Below, piece by piece: positions 1 to 35,469 of a stretch of DNA of 58,268 nt (its first letter is position 1; each line of letters begins with the position of its first letter). The notes beneath the pieces are model-generated. The model was not told where the DNA came from, made no database searches, and saw only the letters and a program-made list of their open reading frames with translations. Source of the DNA: Candidatus Falkowbacteria bacterium (GTDB lineage: Bacteria > Patescibacteriota > Patescibacteriia > Patescibacteriales > GWE2-39-37); contig JAAXUA010000002.1 in the NCBI GenBank assembly GCA_013336275.1, positions 193,904 through 252,171 of the forward strand, read 5' to 3'. A program made the translations under genes and the position numbers.

Positions 1-597
1 AATGAGACTGCCTCGGTCCGTGATTTCGTCACCGACAAGGAATTTTACAGTACGCCATTCAAGGTCAACTTCACTACCAGGCTCCAGAACCAGGGTAATG
101 TTCATGTCAAACCGCGCGGCACGATCGAGATTGCCAATATGCTTGGCAACAAGGTCGCTAATGTGCGGATTAATGATACTGGAGCTAATATCCTGCCGAA
201 CAGCACTCGTCGTTTTGAGGTTCCTTGGAGCGGCGACTTCGGCTTCGGCAAGTACAAGGCCCAGTTAGTCCTGACTTATGGTACTTCGGCCGAGCAGGGC
301 GGCAATGGCATGCAGTCGCTGACATCAATAAAATATTTCTGGATTTTTCCTTGGAAGATCATCGGTATCGTCGTTTCTGGTATCGCATTTCTGATCGCCG
401 CCATCTTCATCTTCCTGAAAGTTTACAAGAACAAGGCAATCGAAAGCGCCATGAGTGAGATGGGCGTCGGCAGCGAGTATTACGTCAAGAAGACCCAGGG
501 CGGATCGCCAGCCATGCACCTGGGACTGACCCTGGCCATCCTGTTGGCAGTCGTCTTTTTGCTGGCGGCCGTGACTTATTTCCTGTTTTTCGCTTAG
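1..597 (+). CDS. 5'-truncated DUF916/DUF3324 (WxL-interacting-protein-like) Ig-fold protein with two C-terminal TM helices
   Basis: Frame +1 is open from base 1 (NETASVRDFVTDKEFYSTPFKVNFTTRLQNQGNVHVKPRGTIEIANMLGNKV), so the track start at 139 is internal. The NxGNVHxxPxG.I.I motif is shared with the ORFs at 616, 1605 and 30168. Hydrophobic helices follow FWIFPW. Confidence 0.75.
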   Translation, partial: NETASVRDFVTDKEFYSTPFKVNFTTRLQNQGNVHVKPRGTIEIANMLGNKVANVRINDTGANILPNSTRRFEVPWSGDFGFGKYKAQLVLTYGTSAEQGGNGMQSLTSIKYFWIFPWKIIGIVVSGIAFLIAAIFIFLKVYKNKAIESAMSEMGVGSEYYVKKTQGGSPAMHLGLTLAILLAVVFLLAAVTYFLFFA

Positions 598-615
598 GCT
601 TAAGTTCAAAGAAAA

Positions 616-1599
616 ATGAAAATATTTGCCAAAATATTCGCCTGCCTGCTACTGGCTTCTGCGATCAGCGGGCATGGTGTCAGAACGGTTTCGGCGCAGA
701 CAATGGATTCGGCGGTGACTGTTACGCCAAGCATCGTCGATGAGCGGGCGGAGGCTAAGGAGATAATCGAAAAAACCGTAAAGCTGAAGAACAATACTGC
801 CGCCAAAGTCGAACTCTACCCGACTGTCAATGATGTCAAACAGGATGAGGGCAGACAGGAATTCGTCGACCCGAGCAAGCTGGATCGCGCGACTTCGCTC
901 GCCCGCTGGATCGAGATCCGGCGTGGCGTCGTCGAACTTGGGCCGAATCAGGAAGTAGAAGTGCCGTTGAAGATTACGGTCAACATGAACGCCCAGCCGG
1001 GAAAATATTTCGCCGCCATCACATTTCCGAATGGCTCCAATCGGGCGGCGGCTGAGCAGCTGGCCAACCAGCCGCAGATGATGATCAGTATCGAGGTGAC
1101 CGAACACGTAGTGGAAAAAGCGGAGAATTTCGCCTTTTCCACCGAAAAGCAAGTCAATCTTAACAATCAGGTAAAATTTCTGATCGGCCTGAAGAATATC
1201 GGCAACAAGGACATCTACCCTAAGGGATCGATTATCATCTATGACCGGCGCGAGCGTGAAGTCGAGAGTATCGATGTCAATTATAACCAGCAGCTGGTCA
1301 AGCCGGGTGAGAATCCGCAATTCGAACCCGTCTGGTCTGCCGGTAAGCGGATGGGCAAATTCAAGGCCAAGCTGGAGGTTGAGTACGGCAAGTCAGGCGA
1401 CCGCAACATCCAAGACACCATCTATTTCTGGATAATGCCTTGGTGGCTCCTAGCGATGATCTGCCTCTTGTTCCTACTGCTCGTAACCAGTGTCTGGCTA
1501 TTTTACTCCCGCATCAAGCACCACAGCCGGGTTATCCAGACAGCGCAAGAAGAAGCGAAGTCACCGATAATAAATTTAAAAAATAGGCCGCGCCATTAA
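616..1599 (+). CDS. DUF916/WxLIP-like two-Ig-domain protein, signal peptide plus C-terminal TM
   Basis: Signal peptide ending VSA; SLARWIEI...EVPLKITV...AQPGKYFAAITF; LKNIGNKDIYPKGSIII; TM after FWIMPWW; basic tail. Confidence 0.75.
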   Translation: MKIFAKIFACLLLASAISGHGVRTVSAQTMDSAVTVTPSIVDERAEAKEIIEKTVKLKNNTAAKVELYPTVNDVKQDEGRQEFVDPSKLDRATSLARWIEIRRGVVELGPNQEVEVPLKITVNMNAQPGKYFAAITFPNGSNRAAAEQLANQPQMMISIEVTEHVVEKAENFAFSTEKQVNLNNQVKFLIGLKNIGNKDIYPKGSIIIYDRREREVESIDVNYNQQLVKPGENPQFEPVWSAGKRMGKFKAKLEVEYGKSGDRNIQDTIYFWIMPWWLLAMICLLFLLLVTSVWLFYSRIKHHSRVIQTAQEEAKSPIINLKNRPRH

Positions 1600-1604
1600 T
1601 CATT

Positions 1605-3335
1605 ATGAAATCAAGCAGCAAGATCAAAAGAATAATCGCATCATTGGCCTTGGCCGCGATTTTCGGCAGCTTTTCGGCAGGCTATGCTTCAGCGCAGGAC
1701 AGCTCGATGATCCTGTCCATTACCCCGCCGCTGTTCAAGGTGAATATGAAGCCTGGCGAGGTCTGGTCAAGCGTAGTCAAAGTAGTCAACAATAATGCCT
1801 ATCCGGTTACGGTCTATACGCAGGTCGCCGATTTCAAGTCCGGTGAATCCGGCGGGGTGGAGTTCGTCAAAAACGAGCCCGATGCTGCCGGCAAGGGCTA
1901 TACTTTAAGCCAGTGGCTGGAAATCACCTCAGAACCTATCGATATCGGCGCTTTCAGCAGTCAGGATATACCCTTCAAGGTCATGCTGCCCCAGACCGCC
2001 GACCCCGGCGGGCATTATGCCGCCATCCTGGTGGGCAACAAGCCGATTGATAATACCGCTGGCAGCGTGGTCAAGATTTCTTCCAAGCTGGCTTCGCTCC
2101 TTTTGGTGCGGGTAGCCGGTGAGGTGGTAGAAAAAGGCGACGTCCGGGAGTTTTCGACCAGCAAAGGTTTTTCCAAAAAGACCGAGGCTGACTTCACTGT
2201 CCGTTTCATCAACAAAGGCAATGTGCATCTGCGGCCCGAGGGCGAGGTTAAGATCACTAATATGTTCGGCCAGACTCGCGGTGTCATCGCGATCAATAAG
2301 AAATCTGAATTCGGCAATGTCCTGCCAGATAGCGAAAAGAAATGGGAATTCAACTGGAAAGGCGAGAGCAGCATCTGGGATGCCGGACGCATGAAGGCTG
2401 AGCTGTTTCTGAGTTATGGCGAAGAAGGCAAGCAATCGGAAGTCAGGAAAATAAATTTCTGGGTCGTCAATCTGAAGCCGACCTTGGCCGTCGCTGGCAG
2501 TCTGCTTTTCATAGTCATGATGACAATCTTCCTTATCAGGAGGTTCATCAGGAAGAGCATCGGCAAGGCCAGGATGGAAGCCGAAGCGGTCGCTGGCCGC
2601 TTAGGCCGCACATTGCCTCAGACCGAGGCCCGCTCCTTGCCGACAGCCAAAACGCCGGCTGGCAAGATGGACGGCGTGGTTGTCAATCTGCGCGATGCTA
2701 ATACCAATAATTTAAATAATAAAACAACCAAACCTATGAATTGGAGTTTCTTAAAGAACGTCTTGATTTTTATCGTGGTCGCCCTGATCGTGGTGGCTGC
2801 TGCCTTCTTCTACAGCCAGTATAAGAAGTCATCAACCAAGACCGCTGAAGACAATGCGCCTAAAAGCGCTGGCGTAACCGTGGTCAATAACGAGAATGCG
2901 ACATCCGCTCCGGCAGTAGAAGCTATCGATGAGACAGCCTCAACGACTGCCACTTCCACTGACTCAATCGCGACTTCGACCGAAGCGGTCGCTACGTCCA
3001 CTGATTCCGTGGCGACTTCGACTGCTGCCACCTCGACCGAGACCTTGCCTAAGGCTCTGGACAAGAAGGAAGTCAAGCTGTCTATCCTGAATGGCAGCGG
3101 CGTTACCGGGGTCAGCAGCAAAGCGGCCAAAATCTTGGAAGAAGCCGGTTATATCGTCGCCTCAAAAGGCAATGCCGCCAATTTCAATTTCGCCGTTACC
3201 GAAATCTCATATAGCTCAGACGTCACTGATAATGCCGAGGCGATTGACCAATTGGTCGGCGGTGACAGCAAGATGACTGAGGACCCGGCCACCAGCGGCA
3301 AGATAGTCGTTACTTTGGGCAAAAATTTCCAATAA
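1605..3335 (+). CDS. DUF916/WxLIP-like protein fused to TM, Thr-rich linker and LytR C-terminal (LytR_C) domain
   Basis: SQWLEI...ADPGGHYAAILV; FINKGNVHLRPEGEVKI; two TM segments; ATST repeats; C-terminal KLSILNGSGVTGVSSKAAKILEEAGY matches the LytR_C signature. Confidence 0.8.
   Translation: MKSSSKIKRIIASLALAAIFGSFSAGYASAQDSSMILSITPPLFKVNMKPGEVWSSVVKVVNNNAYPVTVYTQVADFKSGESGGVEFVKNEPDAAGKGYTLSQWLEITSEPIDIGAFSSQDIPFKVMLPQTADPGGHYAAILVGNKPIDNTAGSVVKISSKLASLLLVRVAGEVVEKGDVREFSTSKGFSKKTEADFTVRFINKGNVHLRPEGEVKITNMFGQTRGVIAINKKSEFGNVLPDSEKKWEFNWKGESSIWDAGRMKAELFLSYGEEGKQSEVRKINFWVVNLKPTLAVAGSLLFIVMMTIFLIRRFIRKSIGKARMEAEAVAGRLGRTLPQTEARSLPTAKTPAGKMDGVVVNLRDANTNNLNNKTTKPMNWSFLKNVLIFIVVALIVVAAAFFYSQYKKSSTKTAEDNAPKSAGVTVVNNENATSAPAVEAIDETASTTATSTDSIATSTEAVATSTDSVATSTAATSTETLPKALDKKEVKLSILNGSGVTGVSSKAAKILEEAGYIVASKGNAANFNFAVTEISYSSDVTDNAEAIDQLVGGDSKMTEDPATSGKIVVTLGKNFQ
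2950..3042 (+). repeat. Coding tandem ATST repeats (5 copies) in a Thr/Ser linker
   Basis: Translation TTATSTDSIATSTEAVATSTDSVATSTAATSTE. Confidence 0.85.
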
Positions 3336-3374
3336 GCCAGTCGGCACTTTTAACCGGCCTCGAGCCTTGGATCC

Positions 3375-4223
3375 ATGGACCGGACAATAAATCTAAAATC
3401 AAAGCCGCGTTCATCCTGGTTAGGAACCAGGGAGCTTGTCGTGGTCGTGTCGTCGATCGTTTTGACGACGGTAGGCATTAAGGCGGCCGACAATTTCATG
3501 AACGCTGGCGACGGGCAGGGAAACGGTCCTTGTCCGGAGAATATGGTCCAAGTACTCTCGGCCGGCGGCAGTTTCTGTATCGATAAATATGAGGCTTCGG
3601 CCGGACCGGATTGTCCCCATGCCAGTCCAGCAACGCAAACCGAAACCAGGAACAACCTGGACAACGTCAACTGCAAAGCGGCCTCGGTCAAAGGCGCTTT
3701 GCCTTGGCGTAATATCTCTCAGAACCAAGCCGCTTCGGCTTGCGCCAAAGCGGGCAAGCGTTTGCCGACAAATAGGGAATGGTTCCAGTCAGCCATGGGC
3801 ACGCCCGATCCGGAAATCGGTTGGGGCCCGGACGATTGCAACGTGAACAGCAACTGGGGCAGTCAGCCAGGGCAGGCCGGGTATGGCAGCAAATGCATAT
3901 CCGCCGCTGGAGCTAATGACATGGTCGGCAATGTCTGGGAGTGGGTCCAAGGGACAATCTATAATGGCGAGTATGATAACCGGGTTTTACCCAAACAAGG
4001 TTTCGTTTCCGGCGTGGACGAGAATTCGTTGCCGACCGAGACAGCGGAGGCCGCGGACCCTAATTATGATGAGGATTATCTTTATATCAAGAATAGCGGC
4101 ACCCGCGGGATTGCTCGCGGAGGATATTGGGACAACAAGATGGAGGCCGGTATAAACTCGTCCTATATGGTTTCTTCGCCGTCTTTTGCCGGTGCCGGCA
4201 TCGGTTTCCGTTGTGTAAAGTGA
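3375..4223 (+). CDS. Membrane-anchored FGE-sulfatase/SUMF1-family (CLec-fold) protein, probably non-catalytic
   Basis: FCIDKYEAS, ACAKAGKRLPTNREW, DMVGNVWEWV, RGGYWDN, IGFRCVK; N-terminal hydrophobic anchor; lacks the FGE catalytic Cys pair after RGG. Confidence 0.85.
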   Translation: MDRTINLKSKPRSSWLGTRELVVVVSSIVLTTVGIKAADNFMNAGDGQGNGPCPENMVQVLSAGGSFCIDKYEASAGPDCPHASPATQTETRNNLDNVNCKAASVKGALPWRNISQNQAASACAKAGKRLPTNREWFQSAMGTPDPEIGWGPDDCNVNSNWGSQPGQAGYGSKCISAAGANDMVGNVWEWVQGTIYNGEYDNRVLPKQGFVSGVDENSLPTETAEAADPNYDEDYLYIKNSGTRGIARGGYWDNKMEAGINSSYMVSSPSFAGAGIGFRCVK

Positions 4224-4242
4224 TTATCTTAATCAAGGAGGA

Positions 4243-4665
4243 ATGATTAATCTTGAGTATTTGACAATTGATGATTCGCTTCGCCCGTTGCAGGAAGGGG
4301 TCTTTCCTGGCCAGGCGGCAAGAACGGCGCGAGCCGCCTCTGCCACCATCTTTTGCGTTGCCTTGCTGCTCGGTAGCATGTGCCGGATCAATGTGGCCGA
4401 TGCGGCGACCAATGTCTCGATGAGCGTCGAAGAGAATCCGTATAACAAAGTCGCGGCCCAGCTCAAAGAAAAGGAAAAGAATATTTCCGAGAGGGAAAGG
4501 TTGGTAAGCAAGTATGAAAAGGAGCTCCAGCGGAGCAATATGGTTTTGGCGCTTTTCGTGTTGCTCCTGTTTCTTTTGATAATGCTCAATTATTATCTCG
4601 ACTACCACCGCAGGAGATTGGATGAGGAGAAAAAGCCTGATAACGTCAGATATTTAAAGCTGTGA
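4243..4665 (+). CDS. Small protein: signal-like helix, coiled coil, C-terminal TM (start uncertain)
   Basis: Hydrophobic segment ending VADA; NPYNKVAAQLKEKEKNISERERL coiled coil; TM MVLALFVLLLFLLIMLNYYL; RRR stop-transfer. Confidence 0.65.
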   Translation: MINLEYLTIDDSLRPLQEGVFPGQAARTARAASATIFCVALLLGSMCRINVADAATNVSMSVEENPYNKVAAQLKEKEKNISERERLVSKYEKELQRSNMVLALFVLLLFLLIMLNYYLDYHRRRLDEEKKPDNVRYLKL

Positions 4666-6518
4666 GTATGCCCAAGATCGGCACAATCATATCGTTCGGC
4701 AAAGCGGCGCTGTTGGCCTCGCTATTTTTTTTATTTATCGCTGCCTACTCGGCCGACGCCTCACGCTTGGCTTTTGTCAGTGATAAGATTTCCCGGTCTT
4801 GGCCCGGAGCCAGCACTTCTCATGAAATCAGGTTCTCTTTAGTTAATTCCATCCCTCCTGGCGGCAGGATCATAATCACTCCGGCTAGCGGACAGTTCGA
4901 TATCCAGCCGGGTTTCGATCATACTGATGTCGATTTGGCTGTCGCCGACAATCCTGGCGGTCCATATGCGGAGCGTGAGTTGGCAGCAGCAAGCAGCGCC
5001 ATTGATGATGGTGCCAGCGTCGTGACAGGAGCAAATGGCAGCATCACTCTGGATCTGAACTCTTCCGAAGGCATCGGTATGGGTAAATTCGTGCGTGTCA
5101 GACTAGGCATTACGGCCGTTTATGGGTCAACCGGAGACACGTTGATACAGAATCCTGGATCGATCGGATCTTACCAGGTTCACGTCGCAACGTTCGATGA
5201 TTTGGGAACGCCGCTCGACGCCGCCGATGCCATGATCGCGGTTATCACACCGATATCGGTATCGGCCAACCAGGCGAAAATCAGGAGCAATGGCGCACCG
5301 ACCGGCATCCTGGTCGGCGGCACACTGCAGACGATCTTGTCATTGAATACTAATTATGATGGCACTTGCAGATATTCGATCGCTTCGAATACGCCTTATG
5401 CGAGCATGACAGGCATTTTTACAAGCACGGGCGCAAAGTTCCATTCGACTATCATCGGCGGTTTGTCCGATGGCAATTATTACTATTACTACGTCCGTTG
5501 CCGCGACTCTTTCGGCGTCAACGATGTGGATGATTATCTCATAACCTTTTCCGTTGCAAACGCTAATGGCGGCTCCGGCGGTACGGGAGGCGGGACAGGA
5601 GGCGGTACGGGTTCGGGCACAGGGTCGGGCAGCGGCTCCGGCGGCGGGGGTGGCGGTACAGGAGGCGGTACAGGTTCGGGTGTCGGTCCAGGCAGCAGCG
5701 GCGGCGCTGGCGGCGGAGGAGCTGGCGGCGCTGGCGGCGGACCAGGCGGTCCATCGCCGGTTGCGACCGAACCGTATCCGCCCAAGCCGGAGAACCCTGA
5801 CTTATCGCTATCGGGCTGGTCCAGTCCGAACAGCAGTCTGGTCTTATTGAAAGATGGCAAGGAGCTGACCAGGGCCGGGGCTGACGCCGCCGCTAAATTT
5901 TCCTTCGGTGTCAAAGACTTGACCGAAGGCATGTATTCATTCGGTATTTATTATACGGATACGGAAAATCGCCGTTCTCGCAACTACACTAATACGTTTT
6001 GGATCAAGCAGGATTCCAAAACGGTCTTGAATTCCATAATAGTGCCGCCGACCATGGCTATCGCCAAATCAAATCTGGCATTAGGCGAGACTTTGAATGT
6101 CGTGGGTCAGTCGGTGCCAGATGCTACTATCGAGCTATGGATCGAGCCGGTCAAGACGGGTGTGACGGCCAAGGATATTGTAAAACAGCAGGGAACGATC
6201 GGCAGTAACGGCAAGTGGAGCCTGGCGGTCGACACGAAAGCCTTGGCCAAAGGAGCTTACAATGTTCGTGGCAGAACCATGATCAAGGTCGTGGGTTACA
6301 GCGACTTCAGCCAAATAGTACCGGTTGGACTAGGTGAGTCGGTCAGCGCAGGCGTCTGTGCTGGCGCTGATCTCAACAAGGATGGCAAGGTTAACTTGAT
6401 CGATTTTTCGATCCTGCTTTACTATTGGGGTTCAAGCAACGCATGCGCCGACCAAAACAAGGATGGCAAAGTGAACCTGATTGATTTCAGTATCATGCTG
6501 TATAATTGGACCGGATAA
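4662..6518 (+). CDS. Secreted Ig-like protein with Gly-rich linker and C-terminal dockerin-like duplicated Ca-binding loops
   Basis: Signal peptide (GTG 4662 or ATG 4668); long Gly/Ser/Thr linker; C-terminus ADLNKDGKVNLIDFSILLYYWG...ADQNKDGKVNLIDFSIMLYNWTG. Confidence 0.8.
   Translation: MSMPKIGTIISFGKAALLASLFFLFIAAYSADASRLAFVSDKISRSWPGASTSHEIRFSLVNSIPPGGRIIITPASGQFDIQPGFDHTDVDLAVADNPGGPYAERELAAASSAIDDGASVVTGANGSITLDLNSSEGIGMGKFVRVRLGITAVYGSTGDTLIQNPGSIGSYQVHVATFDDLGTPLDAADAMIAVITPISVSANQAKIRSNGAPTGILVGGTLQTILSLNTNYDGTCRYSIASNTPYASMTGIFTSTGAKFHSTIIGGLSDGNYYYYYVRCRDSFGVNDVDDYLITFSVANANGGSGGTGGGTGGGTGSGTGSGSGSGGGGGGTGGGTGSGVGPGSSGGAGGGGAGGAGGGPGGPSPVATEPYPPKPENPDLSLSGWSSPNSSLVLLKDGKELTRAGADAAAKFSFGVKDLTEGMYSFGIYYTDTENRRSRNYTNTFWIKQDSKTVLNSIIVPPTMAIAKSNLALGETLNVVGQSVPDATIELWIEPVKTGVTAKDIVKQQGTIGSNGKWSLAVDTKALAKGAYNVRGRTMIKVVGYSDFSQIVPVGLGESVSAGVCAGADLNKDGKVNLIDFSILLYYWGSSNACADQNKDGKVNLIDFSIMLYNWTG
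5569..5752 (+). repeat. Low-complexity Gly-rich coding linker (GGSGGTGGGTGGGTGSG...)
   Basis: Repeated GGC GGT ACA GGA units; explains the Pro-rich antisense shadow ORF at 5534-5932. Confidence 0.85.
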
Positions 6519-6664: not shown

Positions 6665-7132
6665 ATGTCTTTCCTGGATAAATTAAAACGCAAAGTCGAC
6701 GTATTGGAAGAGGGCAAGCTGAAAGAGGTTGAAAATGGCGAAGCAAAAAAGGAAACTCTGAGCAGCGGGACCAGCTACGCCCAGCTTGATGTCGATATAT
6801 ACGAAACGCCTGAGAAGTATGTAATCTTAGGCTCGATCGCCGGAGTCGATATCAAGAACATCGAGCTTTCGGTCGGTGAAGAGAACGACGTCCTGATTAT
6901 CCAAGGGAAGAAGGAGTCGCCGATAGATCAGCTCAAGGCCGGTGAGTCCAAGATCGTGCCACATCATCAGGAATGCCAGTGGGGAGAGTTCTATCGCCAG
7001 ATTATTTTGCCTCAGGAAATAAATCCCGAATTGATCGAGGCTTACGAAGAAAAAGGCGTTCTGGTAATCATTCTTCCGATGCTCAGGCTGCAGCGGGGCA
7101 AGAAGAATATCCAAGTCAGCTTAAAAGCTTGA
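6665..7132 (+). CDS. Hsp20/alpha-crystallin small heat-shock protein
   Basis: DVDIYETPEKYVILGSIAGV, LIIQGKK, ECQWGEFYRQIILP, GVLVIILP; C-terminal IQV (IxI/V) motif. Confidence 0.9.
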   Translation: MSFLDKLKRKVDVLEEGKLKEVENGEAKKETLSSGTSYAQLDVDIYETPEKYVILGSIAGVDIKNIELSVGEENDVLIIQGKKESPIDQLKAGESKIVPHHQECQWGEFYRQIILPQEINPELIEAYEEKGVLVIILPMLRLQRGKKNIQVSLKA

Positions 7133-25610: not shown

Positions 25611-25629
25611 CTTATAGATATCAATATAT

Positions 25630-26823: not shown

Positions 26824-27453
26824 ATGATGCTCGAGAATAAATACGCCAGAGTCGCCGCCTATGTCGTCTTGGTAATTCTTAACCTTATGTCGTTTCTGGC
26901 GTTGTACCAGGTTTCACAAGACGATCGCTTGCCACCGGCCGAGCAGGAAGTCGTAACAGAAGAGGGATCAGCCGGACAGGGGGTTATTTCTCGGATCAGC
27001 CGGCAGTTTTTCGGATTCGGCCAACCATCAGATGAAAAAACCGGTGCTGGTGCGGCGCAATTATCCACAGTGCCGAACGAGCCGAAATTTTCCCGGACTT
27101 CGTTCTTCTTTCAAGCCCCCTATATCGGCAGCCTGGCCATCCCGGAGTCCTGGGAAGGGAAATACGCCACCAAAGAAACAGGACAGTCGATCGATTTTTT
27201 ATACGTCTTGCCTGGAGAGCCAGGCATCCCGATCTTCACGGTCGATTTATTAACGAAAAAAGATTGGGAAAAATTCAAGGCCGCCAATCAAGGCGCTCAA
27301 GTCATTAAGGACTTGCCGGAACACGTCTTCGTGGCCAGGATTCGCAACGCAACCACGACCGACCAGGACAGAGTTAAAGAGTATATAAGGATGACCGGTG
27401 AGGCCAAAGCATCTTGGAATAGCTTTCGGAGCCATCTTCAACCCAAAAATTAA
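26824..27453 (+). CDS. Hypothetical membrane-anchored extracytoplasmic protein
   Basis: ATG directly after the permease stop codon; one N-terminal TM; no recognised domain. Confidence 0.65.
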   Translation: MMLENKYARVAAYVVLVILNLMSFLALYQVSQDDRLPPAEQEVVTEEGSAGQGVISRISRQFFGFGQPSDEKTGAGAAQLSTVPNEPKFSRTSFFFQAPYIGSLAIPESWEGKYATKETGQSIDFLYVLPGEPGIPIFTVDLLTKKDWEKFKAANQGAQVIKDLPEHVFVARIRNATTTDQDRVKEYIRMTGEAKASWNSFRSHLQPKN

Positions 27454-27478: not shown

Positions 27479-27508
27479 TTGTCACTAAAACGTAAAATGT
27501 GGTAAAAT
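27479..27508 (+). promoter_or_regulatory. Sigma70-like promoter for the 577-aa gene
   Basis: TTGTCA-N18-TAAAAT with TG extension. Confidence 0.55.
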
Positions 27509-27585: not shown

Positions 27586-29319
27586 ATGTCGCAAGCAATT
27601 AAAAAACAACTCAAACGATCGTATCCCGTCGTGGCCGGTTTTTTGATTCTGAATATCGCCATCTCAGCCGTGTTTTTCAACATGCGCTTCAATCTTTTAG
27701 AAATCAGCTGGCTTAACGGTGCTCAGGCCCAGGATTCGGCCACCAGCTCTGTTACCGTCAAGAACGCGCCGCCGGCCTTCACGGTCAATGCAGCCGAAAA
27801 CCCGACGTCTTCTTCAACTTCGCCGGTCAATGTCGGCGCTAATATCAGCTTTACCGGCACGGCCGATGACCCGGAAAATAACAGTTATTACTTGATTGTT
27901 TGCGATAGTACGGCTACGGCCACTCCTGGCGCCGGTGGCGCCGCCCCGACCTGCAGTGTCGGCAACACCATCAACTGCGTTTCCGGCTTGACTGGCGATA
28001 CGGCTCAGGCAAGCTGCACCTACGGCAATGTGGCTGATCCTGGAGCTGAGACCAAGAACTGGGCTGCTTTTGTCTGCGATAATCACGCCACCCAGGCCCA
28101 GTGTACGACTGTCGGCAATTCCGGCTCAGGTGATTCCGGCTCTCCGTACTATGTCAACCATGCCCCTACCTTTACGGCAGTGGCCACGACTGATGACAAC
28201 AAGGATCCTGGAGGCATATTTACCATCCAGGGCAACGTAGGCGATACAGATGCCCAGGGCGGAGTCGATACCTTGACCATGAGCGTCTGCAGTTCGAATA
28301 GCTGGTCCACCACCACCGGTTGTGCTGCCACCACATTCTGCACCGGCACCACGACCGGCGCTACGGTTTCCTGCACCTATACCAGCCCGGTTCCGATGGC
28401 TCATGGAACCTCTTCATATTATGCCTTTGTCAAAGATTGGCATCAGTTAGCCTCTGCCGCCAACTCGAGAACTAGCGTAATCACTACCAACAATGTCGCT
28501 CCTTCAGTGAGCAATATCGTCCTGAACGGCGGTTCACTCATTACCTTATTAAATAAGGGTGCCGGGCCAAAAACAGTAACCGCATCCTCATCTTCGGTTA
28601 CGGACAATAACGGTTGTGCCGACTTGGTTGACGCCACCAGCACTATTTATTATTCGGCAGTCGCCGGCGGAGCCGACTGCACGGCCGACGACAATAATTG
28701 TTATAAGTCGGCAGCAGCTGCTTGCAACGTTTCTGACTGTTCAGGCGGTGTCGATACCGTGGCCACAGTAGTATGCAGCGCTGGCTTGGAATATCATGCC
28801 ATCCCAACTGACATTTCCACGGGAAATCCGTACACTTCAAACGGCTGGATTGCTTCGATTTTTCCCTATGATGAAACCCTCTCAGCCAGTCTTGCCACAA
28901 GCAGTCCGGTCGACGTGTTTACTAATATGGCTCTAGACGTCTCTGAGGCGACAATTCCTTATGGCATCTTACAGGCTGGACAGAATACTGCCGGTTACAA
29001 CGCAACCACCACAGTCATAAATTTTGGCAATTGTCCTTTGGCTAGCGATATAGATGGAACTTGGATGTCTAACGGCGGCAATCATATAGGGGAAAATAAC
29101 CAGAAATTTGATCTCTCAACAGCCGTTTACGGGTCGCTTACTTATAATCTATCTTCCACGACGCCACAAACCTTGAACCTTTCTGCTCGACCAACCAGCG
29201 CGGCTAACGTGACCAGGCCAGTTTATTGGGGTATCAATATCCCGGCTTTGCTGCCCTCGGGTGATTATTACGGTACGAATACATTTACAGCAGGACTTTA
29301 TTCCGGCGGAGTTTGGTAA
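27586..29319 (+). CDS. Secreted Cys-rich Ig-like protein with WxL/TasA-like C-terminal domain; candidate major fibre or surface-layer subunit
   Basis: Signal peptide ending AQA; 17 Cys; C-terminus VYWGINIP...GDYYGTNTFTA; paralog of the giant protein C-terminus; monocistronic. Confidence 0.75.
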   Translation: MSQAIKKQLKRSYPVVAGFLILNIAISAVFFNMRFNLLEISWLNGAQAQDSATSSVTVKNAPPAFTVNAAENPTSSSTSPVNVGANISFTGTADDPENNSYYLIVCDSTATATPGAGGAAPTCSVGNTINCVSGLTGDTAQASCTYGNVADPGAETKNWAAFVCDNHATQAQCTTVGNSGSGDSGSPYYVNHAPTFTAVATTDDNKDPGGIFTIQGNVGDTDAQGGVDTLTMSVCSSNSWSTTTGCAATTFCTGTTTGATVSCTYTSPVPMAHGTSSYYAFVKDWHQLASAANSRTSVITTNNVAPSVSNIVLNGGSLITLLNKGAGPKTVTASSSSVTDNNGCADLVDATSTIYYSAVAGGADCTADDNNCYKSAAAACNVSDCSGGVDTVATVVCSAGLEYHAIPTDISTGNPYTSNGWIASIFPYDETLSASLATSSPVDVFTNMALDVSEATIPYGILQAGQNTAGYNATTTVINFGNCPLASDIDGTWMSNGGNHIGENNQKFDLSTAVYGSLTYNLSSTTPQTLNLSARPTSAANVTRPVYWGINIPALLPSGDYYGTNTFTAGLYSGGVW

Positions 29320-29340
29320 TAAATACAGTGAAAATTATAT

Positions 29341-29368
29341 AAAGAAGCGCCTTAAGGGCGCTTCTTTT
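29341..29368 (+). terminator. Rho-independent (bidirectional) terminator
   Basis: AAAGAAGCGCC-ttaag-GGCGCTTCTTTT. Confidence 0.85.
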
Positions 29369-29464: not shown

Positions 29465-29527
29465 ATAAAGGAATAATAATATATGTTTGAAGGATATATT
29501 TTTTTGTATTGGCCGAATTTTTAGATT

Positions 29528-30145
29528 ATGACCAAAATCCAAATTGCAGTCTATGGCGCAATAGTTTTTTCGTTCTTTTATTATCTGATCAGATTCACTT
29601 TCGACCTGCTGTTGCGCGGTTTTGCCCCGGTTGTTTCATCGCGCCCCTGGGTAATCGAGACCTTGATTGATGAGCTGAAGAAGAATAAGATCAAGGAAAA
29701 TCCGGTAATCTATTCCTTGAGTTGCGGCAAGTCCGGTTTTTTGTATTTTGTCGGCAAGGCATTCCCGAATGCCACCTTGATCGGAGTTGAAAACGACTTT
29801 CTGCTTTATCTGCTTGAGCGCATCCAGGTATGGATCAGGCTGCTTGATATCAAGGTCCTGTATGAGAAGCGGCTTTATAGCCTCGATGTCAGCAAGGCGA
29901 ATGTGATCTACTGTTATCTCGGCATAGAATATTTGAGAGAGCTGCCGAAGAAATTCAAGTTCGAGTGCAAGCCGGGTACCTTGATCATCAGTGTCGGTTT
30001 TCCGATTCCTAACTTGCCAGAAAAAAAAGTTTTAGAGATTTCCCAGCAGCAAGGCCGCTTGGATTTCCTGTCCAAGCGCAAGATTTTTTCTTCGAAAAAG
30101 AAGGAGGGTAAACGCCCTCATCTGATATATGTTTATGAAATCTAA
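29528..30145 (+). CDS. FAM173/aKMT-like class I SAM methyltransferase homolog with degenerate motif I
   Basis: N-terminal TM; APVVSSRP; YSLSCGKSG in place of DLGxGDG; LIGVE; ANVIYCYL; KPGTLIISVGFPIP. Confidence 0.65.
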   Translation: MTKIQIAVYGAIVFSFFYYLIRFTFDLLLRGFAPVVSSRPWVIETLIDELKKNKIKENPVIYSLSCGKSGFLYFVGKAFPNATLIGVENDFLLYLLERIQVWIRLLDIKVLYEKRLYSLDVSKANVIYCYLGIEYLRELPKKFKFECKPGTLIISVGFPIPNLPEKKVLEISQQQGRLDFLSKRKIFSSKKKEGKRPHLIYVYEI

Positions 30146-30167
30146 TCACCGTTAGGCAATTATAATA

Positions 30168-31256
30168 ATGAAAAGGGGAGCAATAACTAATCTTTTCGGT
30201 TTTTTCACGGTTGCGCTGTGCCTTTTGGGGTACGCTAAGAGCGCGTCTGCCGGTTTCGGTATCTCACCGCCATATCTTAAGAATCAGCAGCTAGTGCCTG
30301 GTTCGAGGTTCGAGCAGCAGATCACTTTGCTGCGTTCGTCGGCTGACGAGGACCTGAAGGCAACTATCAAGGTCAACGCGCCGGAAATCGCCCCTTGGAT
30401 TACTATCGATAAGGGCGAGGAATTCGTCTTGCCCAAGGGCGAGGTGCAGGTGCCGATGATCGTAACGGTTAACGTGCCCAAGAGCGCCGAATTAGGCAAC
30501 TACAAAGGCAGCATAAATATCAAGGTCGCATCGGCCAATGCTGCTACGGCCGGCGTTGCCATCGCCCTCGGTGCCCGCGTAGATATCGATCTGACTCTTA
30601 CCAACGTCGCCAATAGCGACTTCGTGGTCAAGACAGCCGCCATCCCTGATTTTGAGATGCTTGAGTGGCCGTGGAATTGGAAGATCTTCAGTACCTTCCT
30701 TCATCGCGCCACAGTCGTCTTGAATATCGAGAATATCGGCAACGTCGAAACCGCACCATCAAAGGTCGCTTTGGAGATTCTCGACATCTCCAAGACCAAG
30801 ACTTTGGAGAATCTGATGGACAAGTCGATTGATAAGATACCTTCATTCTCAACCAAGGAAGTTTCCGCCCATTTCCCGACCAAGCTAGGCGTCGGCCAGT
30901 ATTGGGGCAAGGTCAAAGTCTATAAGGGCAACGATATAGTTAATGCCTATGAAATCGCCTTTACCATAGCTAAGCCGGGTGAATTGCCTAATGGCGGATT
31001 AAGCCTCGGTTTGTTGCCTTGGCTGCTCCTCGCCGGCTATATCGTAATCGCCATCATCGTTTTGTCTTTCCTGATCAAGATCAAGGTTTGGCGTTTGACC
31101 GGCAAAGGTCTGGCTCTGCTGCTCGCCCAGTTCTTCGCTCCGATCCGCCCGGTCGCCAGAGCGGTATCCAAATCGACCAACAGCATGAAGACCGGTTTCT
31201 GGCGCTGGGTTGGCACCAAGGTTTCCCAGCATAATGACCGCGATCGTCGCGACTAA
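30168..31256 (+). CDS. DUF916/WxLIP-like two-Ig-domain protein with C-terminal TM
   Basis: Signal peptide ending ASA; GFGISPPY; IAPWITI...VPMIVTVNVP...LGNYKGSI; IENIGNVETAP; TM LLPWLLLAGYIVIAIIVLSFLI. Confidence 0.7.
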   Translation: MKRGAITNLFGFFTVALCLLGYAKSASAGFGISPPYLKNQQLVPGSRFEQQITLLRSSADEDLKATIKVNAPEIAPWITIDKGEEFVLPKGEVQVPMIVTVNVPKSAELGNYKGSINIKVASANAATAGVAIALGARVDIDLTLTNVANSDFVVKTAAIPDFEMLEWPWNWKIFSTFLHRATVVLNIENIGNVETAPSKVALEILDISKTKTLENLMDKSIDKIPSFSTKEVSAHFPTKLGVGQYWGKVKVYKGNDIVNAYEIAFTIAKPGELPNGGLSLGLLPWLLLAGYIVIAIIVLSFLIKIKVWRLTGKGLALLLAQFFAPIRPVARAVSKSTNSMKTGFWRWVGTKVSQHNDRDRRD

Positions 31257-31351
31257 GAAAATCAAGCGGTTGCGTCACGCAGCAGCACCTCTCTTATATA
31301 TAGTCGGCGCGTGCCTGCTGGCCGGCCGTTCCTCATCTAGCTTTTTGCATT

Positions 31352-32602
31352 ATGCGTTTTCGCCCGTTATCCATATTATTCTTGATTTTAGCCATCGGAT
31401 TATTGCCATACCATAAAATCGCCAACGCCAGCACGGCTACCACCTCGGTAACCGTCCTCTTGGTTTGCGGTGATGGCTTGAAGGATGGCGGTGAGACTTG
31501 CGATACTAATGATTTCGGCGGTTTGACTTGCGGCAACTTCGGTTTCGATGACGGCGAACTGACCTGTTCCAACACTATTACGCCCGGCGATTGTTCGACG
31601 ATCCTGACGCCATTCTGCAGCACTTGCGGCAACGGGATCAAAGAAGGCTTCGAGCAGTGCGATGGCACCGATGTCGGTTCGAGCACCTGCCAGATGTTCG
31701 GTTATAACACCGGCAGCCTGTCTTGCGCTTCCAACTGCAATCTGGTCATTACCGGGTGTGCCAGCGTCGGTTTGACCGAACCGGGCAACGCTGGTTCCCA
31801 GGGCGGCGGTTCGGGCGGCGGCGGAGGCACTGGCGGCGGCGGATTTCCAGCCGGCTTCATTCCTGGCTCCGAAGTCGCACCCAAAGCGACCAAGGTCGTA
31901 GTCAACGGCAAAGCCTATCCTGGATCCGACGTCAACATTCTGATTGACGGCAAGACTATCGGTATCGTTCGGGCCGATCCTAAAGCGGATTTCTATTTCG
32001 AAAGCGAAACCATAACTCCTGGCGTAATCGGTTTGGGGCTTTGGGCAGAAGACAGCAAGGGACTGAAGTCGGCCCTGCAAACCCTGACTTTCCGCGTCGC
32101 TTCCGGCGCGGTCACTACCGTTTCCGGAGCCTATCTCTCGCCAAGCATCGATATCGACAAGCCGACAGTCGGACAAGGGGAGGAGCTGAGGGTGTTCGGT
32201 CAGACCGTTCCGACGAGCGATGTCTCGGTCGTATTCCATTCAGCAACTGAGGTGGTCAAACAGACTCAGAGTTCGAACAAAGGCGAATGGACGCTCAATT
32301 TCAATACGGCACCGCTGGAGTCCGAGGCTTATCACATCGTCAAGGCATCATTCGAGCAGAAAGGGACTAACAATATTATCAAGAGCGGTTTTTCCAAAGC
32401 GGTAAGCTTCTATGTCGGCAAGGGCGGCTTCGCCCAGCCTTGCCCCAAGGCTGACCTGAACAAGGACAAGAAGACTAATTTGGTCGACTTCTCGATTTTG
32501 CTTTACTATTGGGGCACTGATAATACTTGTGCCGACCAGAACCGCAACAAGAAGGTCGACCTTATCGATTTCAGTATCATGCTATATAATTGGACAGGGT
32601 AA
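31352..32602 (+). CDS. Secreted protein: Cys-rich (myxobacterial CGNG/CGDG-type) repeats, Gly linker, Ig-like domains, C-terminal dockerin
   Basis: CGDGLKDGGETCD and CGNGIKEGFEQCDG; GGGSGGGGGTGGGG; ADLNKDKKTNLVDFSILLYYWG...ADQNRNKKVDLIDFSIMLYNWTG. Confidence 0.82.
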   Translation: MRFRPLSILFLILAIGLLPYHKIANASTATTSVTVLLVCGDGLKDGGETCDTNDFGGLTCGNFGFDDGELTCSNTITPGDCSTILTPFCSTCGNGIKEGFEQCDGTDVGSSTCQMFGYNTGSLSCASNCNLVITGCASVGLTEPGNAGSQGGGSGGGGGTGGGGFPAGFIPGSEVAPKATKVVVNGKAYPGSDVNILIDGKTIGIVRADPKADFYFESETITPGVIGLGLWAEDSKGLKSALQTLTFRVASGAVTTVSGAYLSPSIDIDKPTVGQGEELRVFGQTVPTSDVSVVFHSATEVVKQTQSSNKGEWTLNFNTAPLESEAYHIVKASFEQKGTNNIIKSGFSKAVSFYVGKGGFAQPCPKADLNKDKKTNLVDFSILLYYWGTDNTCADQNRNKKVDLIDFSIMLYNWTG

Positions 32603-32634
32603 CACAATTTACAATTATCAATTTACAACTCTCA

Positions 32635-33657
32635 ATGAATAATGTGATAAAAACTCTCATCTTTGCCTTTTTGCTGGTCGTGCCGTCATTTGCTGCTCGT
32701 GCTGCTACCTTGTATTTCACGCCTTCTAGCGGAACTTATGGCTATGGCGATGTTTTCGCTGTCGACGTCAAAATCGATATAGATAGCGGTGACGAGTGCA
32801 TCAATACCGTCCAGGGTGTTATCGGTTTCGATAAGGATTATCTTGAAATGGTCGATTTCAGCGGTGGCGAATCGATCCTCTCCTTATGGATCGACCTGCC
32901 CAAGACTGGCGACATGCCGAATATCAATCATGAAAAGATAGTCAAGTTCACCGGCGGCATTCCTGGTGGTTACTGCGGTAAGATTCCGGGTGATCCGGGC
33001 GAGAGCAATATCATCGGCAAAATCATCTTTAAGGTCAATAACTTCAAGGCGGACGCCGTGCCCAAGCCGACGGCTAAGGTTTTTTTCGTTGACAGCACCC
33101 AGGTGCTTCTGAATGACGGTCTGGGCACCGAGGCCAAGGTTGTTTTGAAGGAGGCCGAATTCACTGTCACTGAAAAGCAGGCGGAGTCGAGGAAGGAGTG
33201 GGACACCTTGAAGAATGACGATGTCATCCCGCCCGAACCTTTCGTTATAGAAATTCAGCGCAGCCAGTCGATGTATAATGGGAAAAATTATCTGATATTC
33301 AACACTACGGACAAGCAGTCCGGAGTAGACCATTACGAAGTCCTAGAGGCGAGATTTGATGATAGCGCCGACCGATCTTCCTGGTTCGGCTGGTTTGAAA
33401 GCAAGAAGGCTGACCCTGAATGGAAGCTCGCCAGCATCCCCTACATATTGGAGGACCAGTCCTTGTCAAGCAACATCAAGGTGAAGGCCATAGACAAGGC
33501 CGGCAACGAGCGGATTGAAGAATATTTCATCAAGGAATCAAAACCGGCGCCCAAATCATCTATGAGGTTCGCGCCTTTTGTGGTATTATTTATCATAGTG
33601 GCGCTTGCGGCCTGGCTCATTTTTCGGAAAGCCAGGTCTCGCAACCGCATCAAGTAA
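32635..33657 (+). CDS. Cohesin-domain protein with Ig-like domain and C-terminal TM (ATG 32635 preferred over TTG 32590)
   Basis: MNNVIKTLIFAFLL signal peptide ending ARA; LYFTPSSGTYGYGDVFAVDVKID...INTVQGVIGFD cohesin pattern; TDKQSGVDHYEV; terminal TM. Confidence 0.8.
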   Translation: MNNVIKTLIFAFLLVVPSFAARAATLYFTPSSGTYGYGDVFAVDVKIDIDSGDECINTVQGVIGFDKDYLEMVDFSGGESILSLWIDLPKTGDMPNINHEKIVKFTGGIPGGYCGKIPGDPGESNIIGKIIFKVNNFKADAVPKPTAKVFFVDSTQVLLNDGLGTEAKVVLKEAEFTVTEKQAESRKEWDTLKNDDVIPPEPFVIEIQRSQSMYNGKNYLIFNTTDKQSGVDHYEVLEARFDDSADRSSWFGWFESKKADPEWKLASIPYILEDQSLSSNIKVKAIDKAGNERIEEYFIKESKPAPKSSMRFAPFVVLFIIVALAAWLIFRKARSRNRIK

Positions 33658-33675
33658 AGATAACAAGTCAAGGAG

Positions 33676-35469
33676 ATGAATACTCATAAAAAAAATAGGT
33701 TTCTGGCCTTGTCAGCGCTGCTGGTTTTCGCGCTGTCCAGCTTTGGCCTCGTTTCGCCTGCACTTGCAGCCGGCGGATCGCTATATATCGCTCCGGCCAA
33801 CGGCACTTACGTCGTCGGTGACAAGATTACGGTCACGGTTAAGGCCTATACCGGTGGCAACACCATAAACGCAGCCGAGGGCGTCCTGAATTTCGATAGG
33901 AATTTTCTGGAAGTTTCCGGCATCTCTAAGAGCGGGTCTATTTTTTCCATGTGGCCGGCTGAGCCTAGCTATTCCAACGGGGCCGGCTCTGTCAGTTTCG
34001 GTGGCGGATTGACTCCGCCAGGTTTCTCGGGGCAGTCTGGTAAGATCATTTCGGTGACTTTCAAAGCCAAAGCGGTCGGATCGACTCAAGTCAGATTTTC
34101 CTCGGGCGCCATCCTGGCCAATGACGGCAAGGGTTCCAATGTGCTCGAGACCATGGGCAGCGCCACTTTTAATATTTCAGCCAAGGATGGCGTCGTGCCG
34201 GATTCCGCCACGAAGGAGACAGCTGGCACCGGCAAACCATTGGTAGTCCAAGACCAGAAAACGGCAGTCATAACTGACGAGTACAACAAGCCGAACATAA
34301 CCTCGGCAACCCATCCGGACCAGAATACCTGGTATGCTAAGAATAATGTCGAGTTTGCTTGGGAAATGCCCGCAGGCGTGACCGGAGTCAGTTATGATTT
34401 CAATAAGGAGCTGAACTTCGATCCAAAATCAGAATCATCAGGGCTGGTTTCTTCGAAAGCTTATGATAATGTCGAAAACGGCATCTGGTATTTGCATCTC
34501 AAACTATATGACGGCAAGAAATGGGGGACTGTCGATCATTACCGCGTAATGCTTGATAATGTGCGCCCTAAGCCGTTCACGATCAGGGTAGAGCAGACTG
34601 ACGCCGGCAATTGGCCGAAACTGTATTTCAAGACCAAAGACGATATCTCCGGCGTCCAGTCGTACGAAATCTACGTTAACAGCTTGGAAGAGAATAAATA
34701 TAGCTTGACCGAGGATGAATCGCAGGAAAATCTGAACATCGAACTGTCACAGCTCGGTTACGGCGATCATACGGCACTGATCAAGGTGATAGACAAAGCC
34801 GGCAACGAGACGGTTGAAACCGTCGAATTCACCATCCAGCCGATCGAGACTCCGGTCATCAAGAATTATGCCAGAGAAATCAAGCCATCGGATCAGTTTT
34901 TCATCAACGGTACGGCGCTGGCGAATAGTCTGGTCAATATTTACATCCAGGACAGCGCGGGCAGGATTGCGGCCAAGGTCGTCCATGGCGATAAGAACGG
35001 CAATTGGTTTTATCTGAATGATTCCGGTCTGAGTAACGGACGCTATTTCGCTTGGGCTGAGGGTGAAAACATCAATGGCTTAAAGAGCGTGCCCACCCAG
35101 AAGGTCAGCTTTCTGGTGACGCCGCCGGTTTTCGCCACATTTGGATCATTCGTCATCAATTACTTCACGGTCATTACCAGCCTTCTGTTCATGATCATCC
35201 TGATCGTCGCTTTGGTCATGCTGTTGAGCGGCAAGCTGCGAAAAAAACTGAAGAAGGAGACGGTTGAAGTCGAGGATGTGCTGCATCAGAACATGTGCGG
35301 ACTGAAGCAGATGGTAGACGATGAAGTTTCACGGATCGACCAGTTCAAGCGCATCACCGAAGTCAGGAAAGAGGGCGCCAAGATGAAGCAGGCACTGAGG
35401 GAATCGATTGACACGACCGAGATGAAAATCCTGAAAGAGATAAAGGACGTAGAGGAAATCTTGAAATAA
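33676..35469 (+). CDS. Cohesin-domain protein with Ig-like domains, TM and cytoplasmic coiled coil
   Basis: LYIAPANGTYVVGDKITVTV...INAAEGVLNFD...WPAEPSYSN; ITSATHPDQNTWY; full-length paralog of 7150-8982. Confidence 0.85.
   Translation: MNTHKKNRFLALSALLVFALSSFGLVSPALAAGGSLYIAPANGTYVVGDKITVTVKAYTGGNTINAAEGVLNFDRNFLEVSGISKSGSIFSMWPAEPSYSNGAGSVSFGGGLTPPGFSGQSGKIISVTFKAKAVGSTQVRFSSGAILANDGKGSNVLETMGSATFNISAKDGVVPDSATKETAGTGKPLVVQDQKTAVITDEYNKPNITSATHPDQNTWYAKNNVEFAWEMPAGVTGVSYDFNKELNFDPKSESSGLVSSKAYDNVENGIWYLHLKLYDGKKWGTVDHYRVMLDNVRPKPFTIRVEQTDAGNWPKLYFKTKDDISGVQSYEIYVNSLEENKYSLTEDESQENLNIELSQLGYGDHTALIKVIDKAGNETVETVEFTIQPIETPVIKNYAREIKPSDQFFINGTALANSLVNIYIQDSAGRIAAKVVHGDKNGNWFYLNDSGLSNGRYFAWAEGENINGLKSVPTQKVSFLVTPPVFATFGSFVINYFTVITSLLFMIILIVALVMLLSGKLRKKLKKETVEVEDVLHQNMCGLKQMVDDEVSRIDQFKRITEVRKEGAKMKQALRESIDTTEMKILKEIKDVEEILK

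Follow-up and report, generated by a model that had tools for sequence, protein, structure and literature searches.

The DNA considered here is a stretch of 58,268 nucleotides, hereafter the window, from a Candidatus Falkowbacteria genome (assembly GCA_013336275.1, contig JAAXUA010000002.1, positions 193,904 to 252,171 of the forward strand). The analysis concerned positions 1-35469, where 19 open reading frames (ORFs), named g1 to g19, encode candidate components of surface fibres with very large tip proteins. The source genome is 1.2 Mb in size and 97% complete, and homologs of the window proteins carry the names Candidatus Falkowbacteria, Parcubacteria or Patescibacteria, with Falkowbacteria falling within the Parcubacteria group. 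A first-pass annotation, made from the sequence alone, had viewed the region as 35 kb of co-oriented genes, almost all for exported or membrane proteins, that together build one filament or array. Co-orientation was borne out, as 19/19 ORFs lie on the + strand, and the expectation of export or membrane location holds overall, failing for g7 (an Hsp20 protein), g11 (an ATPase) and probably g15. Comparison of the proteins with one another revealed three groups of paralogs (g1, g2, g3 and g16; g6 and g17; g8, g18 and g19). Pfam matches in the window comprise Hsp20, an ATP-binding cassette (ABC) ATPase, MacB_PCD with FtsX, Fn3, dockerin (g6) and DUF916, which is WxLIP_PGBD (g3); these agree with the MacB-type ABC transporter and the Hsp20 protein named at the outset.

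Two operons and their conservation

The region consists of two conserved operons, A and B, which adjoin here by happenstance. Operon A has its start approximately 13 kb upstream of the window, where a separate giant protein of 3446 amino acids (aa) and a pilin, u7, are encoded, and follows the order giant, u7 (one or two copies), g1, g2, g3, g4 (one or two copies), g5, g6, g7, g8. This order is complete in genomes G022, G056, G011, G021, G093, G113 and G086, and runs to the contig end in G016 and G003. Operon B follows the order g9, g10, g11, g12, (g13), (g15), g14, g16, g17, g18, g19 and was found in at least 10 genomes, including relatives of only 30% identity. Across several families, at least 20 genomes keep the gene order, and this synteny survey upheld the earlier expectation that the parts belong together. 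Because operon B is located elsewhere in G021, G093, G113 and G086, where operon A stops after g8, the two operons are separate units, and the initial proposal of one filament or array was abandoned along with any single filament built from all 19 genes. In the two most distant operon B relatives (30% identity), a u7-like Pam-type pilin gene stands between the dockerin and cohesin genes (L063:14567-15520; L066:14306-15430) and the body of the giant is similar to that of the operon A giant, so that one operon can combine the two systems. The metagenome-assembled genome records L038, L041, L044, L049, L054, L056, L057 and L065 carry the operon under the title 'uncultured Gammaproteobacteria bacterium', apparently through a labelling error.

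Co-occurrence was surveyed in 151 genomes of the order. The operon B gene g14, which encodes a 577-aa candidate subunit, is present in 39 of these genomes and g16, for a chaperone-like protein, in 38; both are found in 37 (Fisher p ~1e-31, a value that takes no account of phylogeny), and the three genomes discordant for the pair are 74-88% complete. The pilin u7 is present in 39/39 of the g14-positive genomes. Wherever g16 and g14 share a contig, they are 180-957 bp apart (31/31 genomes), and the end of the giant lies 4.8-8.1 kb from g14 in 21/23 cases. The listed parts co-occur far above chance.

These distributions bear on the possibility that the genes are chance neighbours, or form a general surface-protein island without joint function. 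Large surface proteins are plentiful in bacteria of the Candidate Phyla Radiation (CPR), and the window holds a third giant ORF at 53153-58267 (>1705 aa, with Laminin_G_3 and PurAcPhos_N-like domains), which runs past the contig end. However, gene order is kept across many families, down to 30% identity, and the 37/39 co-occurrence, again uncorrected for phylogeny, is accompanied by constant adjacency. An origin by chance is contradicted by the synteny and is considered very improbable.

Subunits, giants and chaperone-like proteins

The upstream part of operon A (L014:6783-19251, from 13 kb to 0.7 kb before the window start) encodes the 3446-aa giant, which carries DUF2341, a 244-aa lipoprotein-like protein with 37 cysteines, and u7, a 337-aa secreted Pam-like pilin located directly before g1; two further u7 paralogs are found on other contigs of the genome. 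Pam pili were described from a CPR bacterium, Ca. Mycosynbacter amalyticus, and their pilins have two immunoglobulin (Ig)-like domains, the linker strand between which is donated (Troman et al., 2026, bioRxiv 10.64898/2026.03.03.709456). A C-terminal domain of ~185 aa is common to u7 and the 3446-aa giant, and both u7 and the end of the giant match NF058581 (CPR_Pam_pilin_C) with 27-29 bits (E ~1e-6, model positions 3-148; cut-off 55). The same model was matched by 30/30 members of the u7 family and in 0/14 control genomes, and the u7 family profile had no match among PDB sequences. Operon A appears to be a distant Pam-type system.

Four transmembrane (TM)-tethered DUF916-like proteins had been recognised at the outset, and their nature was confirmed by a PF06030 match of g3, by a profile match to WxLIP and by profile alignment of g16. 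Three of them, g1 (1..597), g2 (616..1599) and g3 (1605..3335), are the WxLIP/PamC-like chaperone paralogs 1 to 3 of operon A. The membrane-anchored g1 is cut 5' by the window edge; the full protein has 374 aa, with its start at L014:19473, and its position within the operon is kept in nine other genomes. A signal peptide, two beta-sandwich domains and a TM helix (278-296) make up g2. Against PF06030, g3 scores 29.7-32.7 bits (cut-off 27.3); the scores of g1 (15.7 bits) and g2 are weak, and g1 is 32% identical to g3. A profile of g1-g3 matches the EfmWxLIP1 structures 9i25 and 9i1y from Enterococcus faecium over both domains (E 5e-4). A second TM helix, a Ser/Thr-rich linker and a C-terminal LytR_C domain (47 bits) are also present in g3; this extension seems to be kept in the ~545-aa orthologs of G093, G113 and G086 and may connect the protein to the cell wall.

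The fourth protein, g16 (30168..31256), lies 0.85 kb from g14 in operon B and is a WxLIP/PapD-like two-domain protein with a TM helix at 285-303. Its AlphaFold2 (AF2) model, with a mean predicted local distance difference test (pLDDT) score of 89.3, consists of a signal peptide, two beta-sandwich domains, the TM helix and a helical cytoplasmic tail. Foldseek matched the model to 9i25_C, a WxLIP in complex with long WxL, at E 1.6e-9, and also to the chaperones FimC, DraB, CfaA and SfaE. At the profile level, the g16 family aligns with g1-g3 over both domains (hhalign probability 98%, E 2.4e-13). No Pfam domain was found above threshold in the g16 family, PF11797 matching 15/71 members weakly (best E 0.0025), and the family profile had no match among PDB sequences. 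In all four proteins a C-terminal TM helix follows the second domain. The DUF916-like proteins thus truly belong to the WxLIP/PapD-like proteins of chaperone type, and g16 is a candidate chaperone or holder for g14 and for the giant of operon B.

This giant, g9 (9323..22555), is an Fn3-rich protein of 4410 aa with a signal peptide and is the candidate tip subunit of fibre B; its orthologs occupy the same operon position and range from 4.2 to 7.6 thousand aa. Its C-terminal four-domain module (20996..22555, residues 3892-4410) is a paralog of g14 without the free N-terminal strand. The duplication of the 577-aa body at the end of the giant, which had been noticed initially, is borne out by 41% identity between g14 residues 60-571 and g9 residues 3892-4405 (E 1e-93) and by alignment of 16/16 cysteines of the module with cysteines of g14. 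The candidate shaft subunit g14 (27586..29319) has a TM/signal region, an orphan strand and four Ig-like domains (D1-D4), of which D1-D3 are rich in disulfides and D4 is Cys-poor. Its AF2 model (mean pLDDT 88.5) comprises four all-beta domains over residues 60-577; scores below 50 are found at residues 1-3 and 27-57, and the block of residues 51-60 averages 47 and has no DSSP strand.

The g14 family is large: at E<=1e-3 it has 1989 cluster representatives, and 879 remain at E<=1e-30; the best 150 of the 1989 are only close forms of the module. Among the matches listed, the module either stands alone in proteins of 540-640 aa or belongs to giants of 1.2-7.6 thousand aa, where it is always at the extreme C-terminus and where the match to the family profile begins at positions 59-67, corresponding to the last residues of the strand. 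Searches of Pfam, NCBIfam and PDB with sequence and profile revealed no relative of the family. The suggestion that the 577-aa protein is WxL-like found no support, as the WxL model PF13731 gave nothing at E<=1. Likewise, g14 and 66 aligned relatives gave nothing at E<=1 against NF058581, and hhalign assigned a probability of 11% to a relationship between the g14 and u7 families. On these grounds g14 was not classed as a Pam or WxL pilin.

The orphan conserved strand DSATSSVTVK (27733..27762, g14 residues 50-59) lies just after an AxA site and is a candidate donor strand. It is among the best-conserved parts of the family (D50, A52, V56, V58 and N60 are nearly invariant), and in many relatives it comes directly after an ordinary signal peptide of 20-30 aa and AxA. 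Each of D1-D3 opens with N-x-A-P-x-[FV] and has the last strand of the preceding domain in front of it; the strand DSATSSVTV (50-58) precedes D1 without any domain before it, and its equivalent in the giant is the final strand of the preceding domain (…RYAELTVNPNANAAPTF). At the other end, D4 finishes with '…PSGDYxGxNTFTA', behind which come only a short tail of variable sequence and a terminal Trp that is nearly invariant, leaving no space for another strand; as read from the sequence, this ending appears to be a tyrosine-corner motif of the F-strand type. Together, these features would fit a subunit whose N-terminal strand is donated to the last domain, left open, of the preceding subunit or of the giant.

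Comparison of the g14 N-terminus (27586-27735 in the window) with P0275, P0279 and P0308 revealed two forms in the g14 family, an ordinary signal peptide of ~25 aa and a Falkowbacteria type composed of a conserved basic stretch, KIIKKKxKRSxP, a TM helix, an 'FN' motif, a spacer of 17-30 aa and AxA.

An alternative to polymerisation is that the WxLIP-like proteins g1-g3 and g16 each hold one giant or one 577-aa copy by beta-strand complementation, resulting in a lawn of single adhesins in which g14 would be a short membrane-proximal partner or the stalk of the giant. WxLIP was originally proposed to be a cell-surface holder acting by beta-strand complementation (Hassan et al., 2023, PMC10599100), and display of this kind agrees with the solved complex 9i25, as well as with the TM helix that g14 retains here, its AxA site being atypically distant. 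In contrast, electron cryomicroscopy (cryo-EM) and genetics of the Elr pilus, published in 2026, established WxLIP-type proteins as assembly chaperones of a donor-strand polymer (Sleutel et al., 2026, bioRxiv 10.64898/2026.10.17.759780). Furthermore, operon A has a Pam-like pilin, whose relatives make filaments, many relatives of g14 have an ordinary cleavable signal peptide right before the orphan strand, and a capping subunit that lacks an acceptor, the role considered below for g6, is sensible mainly in a polymer. Display without polymerisation is regarded as rather unlikely, and the region is best read as encoding a donor-strand fibre whose tip is a giant.

Dockerin subunits, membrane cohesins and accessory genes

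Two dockerin-tailed proteins had been predicted, and both predictions held. In operon A, g6 (4662..6518) combines a Pam-like pilin N-terminal domain and linker strand with Ig-like domains and a C-terminal dockerin (Dockerin_1, PF00404, 33.3 bits; cut-off 22.9). Residues 15-203 align with the u7 family (hhalign probability 96%, E 1.7e-9) over the N-terminal domain and linker strand only, the linker of g6, 'IAVITPISVSAN', aligning with that of u7, 'VAIVDNVDVSAT'; the place of the pilin acceptor domain is taken in g6 by the Ig-like domains and dockerin. Because the linker is the donated strand in Pam pilins, and g6 would be donor-only with a docking module at its end, g6 is a candidate terminator/anchor subunit of fibre A that lacks an acceptor domain.

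In operon B, g17 (31352..32602) opens with a signal peptide and the N-terminal strand STATTSVTV, after which come Cys-rich repeats, Ig-like domains and the dockerin. Its Dockerin_1 score of 18.3 bits is under the cut-off of 22.9; over 240 aa it is 37% identical to the C-terminal Ig-plus-dockerin half of g6, and the dockerins of both proteins have the duplicated Ca-loop repeat DxNxDGxVNxxDF. The mature N-terminal STATTSVTV of g17 resembles DSATSSVTV of g14, and a core of T-[ST]-V-[TE]-V is found in most g17 orthologs. This protein is a candidate terminator/anchor of fibre B.

The three TM-anchored cohesins expected at the locus were recovered on different evidence, g19 by Pfam and g8 and g18 by their paralogy and a joint profile. 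The operon A protein g8 (7150..8982) has a cohesin-like domain, a Big_13 Ig domain, a TM helix at 506-524 and, on the cytoplasmic side, a coiled coil, and is 30% identical to g19 over its full length (E 4e-89). The same layout is found in g19 (33676..35469; TM helix 499-517), and g18 (32590..33657) has a cohesin-like domain followed by a TM helix at 327-345; the true start of g18 is probably the ATG at 32635. When scanned alone, residues 1-185 of g19 match the cohesin model PF00963 with 41.2 bits (cut-off 24.1), and 12/20 members of the cohesin family match this model. The N-terminus of g19 is 33% identical to g18 (E 6e-17), and the joint profile of the g8, g18 and g19 N-termini matches solved cohesins, such as 5g5d (E 5e-4); full-length g19, searched as a single sequence against PDB, gave no cohesin match. 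In operon A, g8 is a candidate membrane socket for the g6 dockerin, and binding between cohesins and dockerins is proposed among the window proteins. A text search of the literature that combined cohesin and dockerin with CPR terms returned nothing relevant.

Small secreted cohesin-like proteins without a TM helix are encoded near the operons (L066:19167-19907 and L014:3719-4333; also in G056, G035, G011 and G055), and a distant relative encodes a 246-aa protein, possibly an adaptor, in which a dockerin motif accompanies a cohesin-like part.

Such modules invite a different view, namely a scaffold like that of a cellulosome or S-layer, in which the Cys-rich g14, as an abundant protein, would form a two-dimensional surface layer, the cohesins would dock dockerin proteins, and the DUF916-like and ABC proteins would serve envelope biogenesis. 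The cohesin and dockerin modules are genuine, and relatives have small cohesin-only and cohesin-plus-dockerin adaptor proteins. Moreover, a promoter-like site (27479-27508) and a strong hairpin (29341..29367, an 11-bp GC-rich palindrome just after the g14 stop) flank g14, as for a highly expressed structural gene, both being consensus matches only. However, the operons contain no enzymes or carbohydrate-active enzyme cargo, g6 has a pilin-type N-terminal domain and linker, and the constant pairing of a small subunit and a giant with the same module, together with a PapD-like protein, suits a linear fibre over a lattice. A scaffold of this type is improbable.

In each operon B examined, g10, g11 and g12 separate the giant from g14. 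The latter two (24282..26823), placed directly upstream of g14 in every genome examined, encode an ABC ATPase, which is extended at length at its C-terminus, and a permease of the MacB type with MacB_PCD and FtsX domains and four TM helices; in G021, where g14 and the giant are 64 kb apart, g11 and g12 are still beside g14. MacB-type systems act by mechanotransmission on extracytoplasmic partners, and by analogy it is a possibility that g11 and g12 release or load g14 in this manner.

In operon B, g10 (22652..24277), a constant member, is N-terminally anchored with Fn3/PurAcPhos_N-like domains, and g13 (26824..27453) encodes a small, weakly conserved, N-terminally anchored protein. The methyltransferase-like g15 (29528..30145) matches an NCBIfam model for an archaeal protein-lysine N-methyltransferase with 29 bits against a cut-off of 200; it adjoins g14 in G001, G003, G022 and G056 and may modify the subunit. 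The constant members of operon A, as judged by synteny, include g4 (3375..4223; one or two copies), a membrane-anchored protein of the FGE-sulfatase family (PF03781, 56.8 bits), and g5 (4243..4665), a small coiled-coil protein with a predicted TM helix. A cytoplasmic small heat-shock protein of the Hsp20 family (PF00011, 41.7 bits) is encoded by g7 (6665..7132), which is placed between g6 and g8 in every genome examined; g4-type and Hsp20 genes are constant in operon A of all of these genomes.

Proposed assembly and comparison with known systems

The homology of the chaperone-like proteins, cohesins, dockerins and Pam-like pilin is shown by the comparisons, as are the domain swap in g6 and the synteny. 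From the arrangement of these parts we infer polymerisation of g14, an order of subunits, binding of dockerins by cohesins and a role for the ABC transporter. The region would accordingly hold two paralogous donor-strand fibre systems that operate without usher or sortase and have giant tips and cohesin-dockerin membrane anchors, a reading that is held with moderate confidence. In the proposed assembly, a giant protein exported by Sec would serve as an acceptor-only tip through its last domains, and the small subunit would amount to these domains plus a free strand. Membrane-anchored WxLIP/PapD-like proteins would keep the open fold of the subunit and then hand it over, so that the fibre would extend outward from the membrane under its giant tip. 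A dockerin subunit, with a strand of the subunit type and a dockerin for an acceptor domain, would cap the fibre, and its dockerin would plug into the outward-facing membrane cohesins. This plug would stand in for PamR, which is the terminator/anchor in Pam pili, and for the sortase with its LPxTG protein in WxL pili. Fibre A would be composed of the upstream giant, u7, g1-g3, g6 and g8, and fibre B of g9, g14, g16, g17 and g18/g19, with the MacB-type transporter of operon B possibly spending ATP to release or load g14.

Several observations weigh against this proposal. The match of u7 to the Pam pilin model is sub-threshold at NCBI (29 vs 55 bits), and the N-termini of g8 and g18, taken alone, have no Pfam cohesin match. 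Foldseek of the g14 model against PDB yielded only generic tandem Ig/Fn3 proteins (mastigonemes and complement MG domains), which say nothing about whether it is a pilin, and g14 is without sequence or profile likeness to WxL or Pam pilins. The g16 model also matches RbmA (E 1e-8), the fold assigned to PamR; despite this match, g16 aligns with the WxLIP-like g1-g3 over both domains. The resemblance between the g14 and g17 strands covers ~5 residues and shows no clean co-variation across ~20 genomes. Finally, a spacer of 17 residues separates the TM helix from the AxA site in g14 here, and because this length is unusual for signal peptidase I, the protein might stay membrane-anchored.

A more specific proposal is that operon B is a distinct, energy-assisted donor-strand fibre, having a subunit family of ~2,000 clusters, giants of 4,000-7,600 aa, a dedicated MacB-type ABC transporter for extracting the subunit from the membrane or loading it, and a strand-plus-dockerin cap that inserts into cohesins. 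It draws on the four cadherin-like Ig domains of the subunit, its orphan G-type strand and a last domain that stops at the F strand with a terminal Trp. This proposal is tentative and, taken as a whole, doubtful; if true, it would describe the first pilus held by cohesin and dockerin and the first case of a donor-strand pilus in which ATP drives a step.

Attachment of CPR/Patescibacteria to their hosts is a central question for a large share of bacterial diversity. The locus would widen Pam-type pili to the Parcubacteria group, and the homology of its chaperone-like proteins to WxLIP/ElrE of Bacillota points to a single ancestry of two systems that were published independently. A dockerin-tailed cap with membrane cohesins would offer a concrete anchoring mechanism for bacteria that have neither usher nor sortase. 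In addition, a large uncharacterised subunit family is defined, always tied to giant adhesins and an ABC transporter. The core inference of the first-pass annotation was sound, and its view of the system as undescribed is correct in part. Usher-less donor-strand pili with membrane chaperones were published in 2026, and what is new relative to both papers is limited to the proposed anchoring by cohesin and dockerin, the family of g14 subunits and the ABC transporter linked to them; neither paper (bioRxiv 10.64898/2026.03.03.709456; bioRxiv 10.64898/2026.10.17.759780) mentions cohesin or dockerin.

Among established systems, the chaperone-usher pili of Gram-negative bacteria (Fim, Pap, CFA/I and Csu) have the same logic of an acceptor-only tip, donor-strand subunits and a terminator, and their chaperones are represented among the g16 matches (FimC, DraB, CfaA and SfaE). 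Here, however, both an outer membrane and an usher are lacking, anchoring in the membrane is a feature of the chaperone-like proteins, and no relation exists at the sequence level. Modules of the kind known from cellulosomes and from non-cellulosomal proteins are recognisable in the duplicated Ca-loop repeat of the g6 and g17 dockerins, in the above-cut-off cohesin of g19 and in the presence of a cell-anchored cohesin bearer. Unlike cellulosomes, the operons have no enzymes, the cohesins are borne by proteins that cross the membrane once and have cytoplasmic coiled coils, the dockerin proteins have pilin-type N-termini, and the use proposed for the modules is that of a pilus anchor.

The csc/WxL clusters of Bacillota (Siezen, 2006, PMC1534035; Hassan, 2023, PMC10599100) include the Elr/WxL pilus of Enterococcus faecalis, reported to be confined to Bacillota, in which the DUF916/DUF3324 membrane protein ElrE was identified by genetics, pull-downs and cryo-EM as the chaperone of a donor-strand-exchanged WxL pilus and was matched structurally to CsuC, CfaA, Caf1M and EcpB (Sleutel et al., 2026, bioRxiv 10.64898/2026.10.17.759780). 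The Foldseek matches of g16 belong to the same class, and its C-terminal TM helix is found in ElrE, PamC and PamD as well. Other likenesses include a C-terminal module common to small and large proteins, which in the large protein is the domain nearest to the C-terminus, an N-terminal strand at the mature end of the small subunit, and an adjacent DUF916/DUF3324+TM protein, with true homologs here according to Pfam, the PDB profile match and Foldseek. As in WxL clusters, such a chaperone is encoded within 10 kb of the subunit, its PF11797 part being weak. In contrast, a six-frame search of the whole genome for the WxL domain (PF13731) found none at E<=1, a Lactococcus lactis control being detected. 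As stated initially, sortase and LPxTG signals are lacking, with no PF04203 match in the genome at E<=0.01 and no LPxTG-like motif near any C-terminus of the window proteins. Anchoring here would instead be non-covalent, via cohesin and dockerin. Because the WxL domain and a sortase anchor were searched for and neither was found, operon A is not a WxL system.

The closest likeness is to Pam pili, in which PapD-like chaperones with a C-terminal TM helix, PamC and PamD, act with an acceptor-only tip and a membrane-anchored terminator; PamT is a single-domain tip, and PamR, an RbmA-like protein with a strand at its N-terminus, is the TM-anchored terminator (Troman et al., 2026, bioRxiv 10.64898/2026.03.03.709456). 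A CPR host, Ig-like subunits, the absence of usher and sortase, and TM-tethered PapD/FimC-like chaperones, represented here by g16 and g1-g3, are common to both, donor-strand exchange and an acceptor-only tip would be as well, and the operon A pilin and giant match CPR_Pam_pilin_C below its curated cut-off. The systems differ in their host, Falkowbacteria being absent from the text of that paper, and in their tips, which are giants of 3,400-10,000 aa here and a single domain in PamT. No separate PamR-like gene was recognised at the locus; the dockerin-tailed g6 and g17 stand where a terminator is expected, accompanied by membrane cohesins. A further difference is that operon B has another, four-domain subunit family and a MacB-type ABC transporter. 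Operon A appears to be related to Pam pili through its pilin. Operon B has its logic and its accessory proteins in common with operon A, but its subunit is unrelated or has diverged past recognition.

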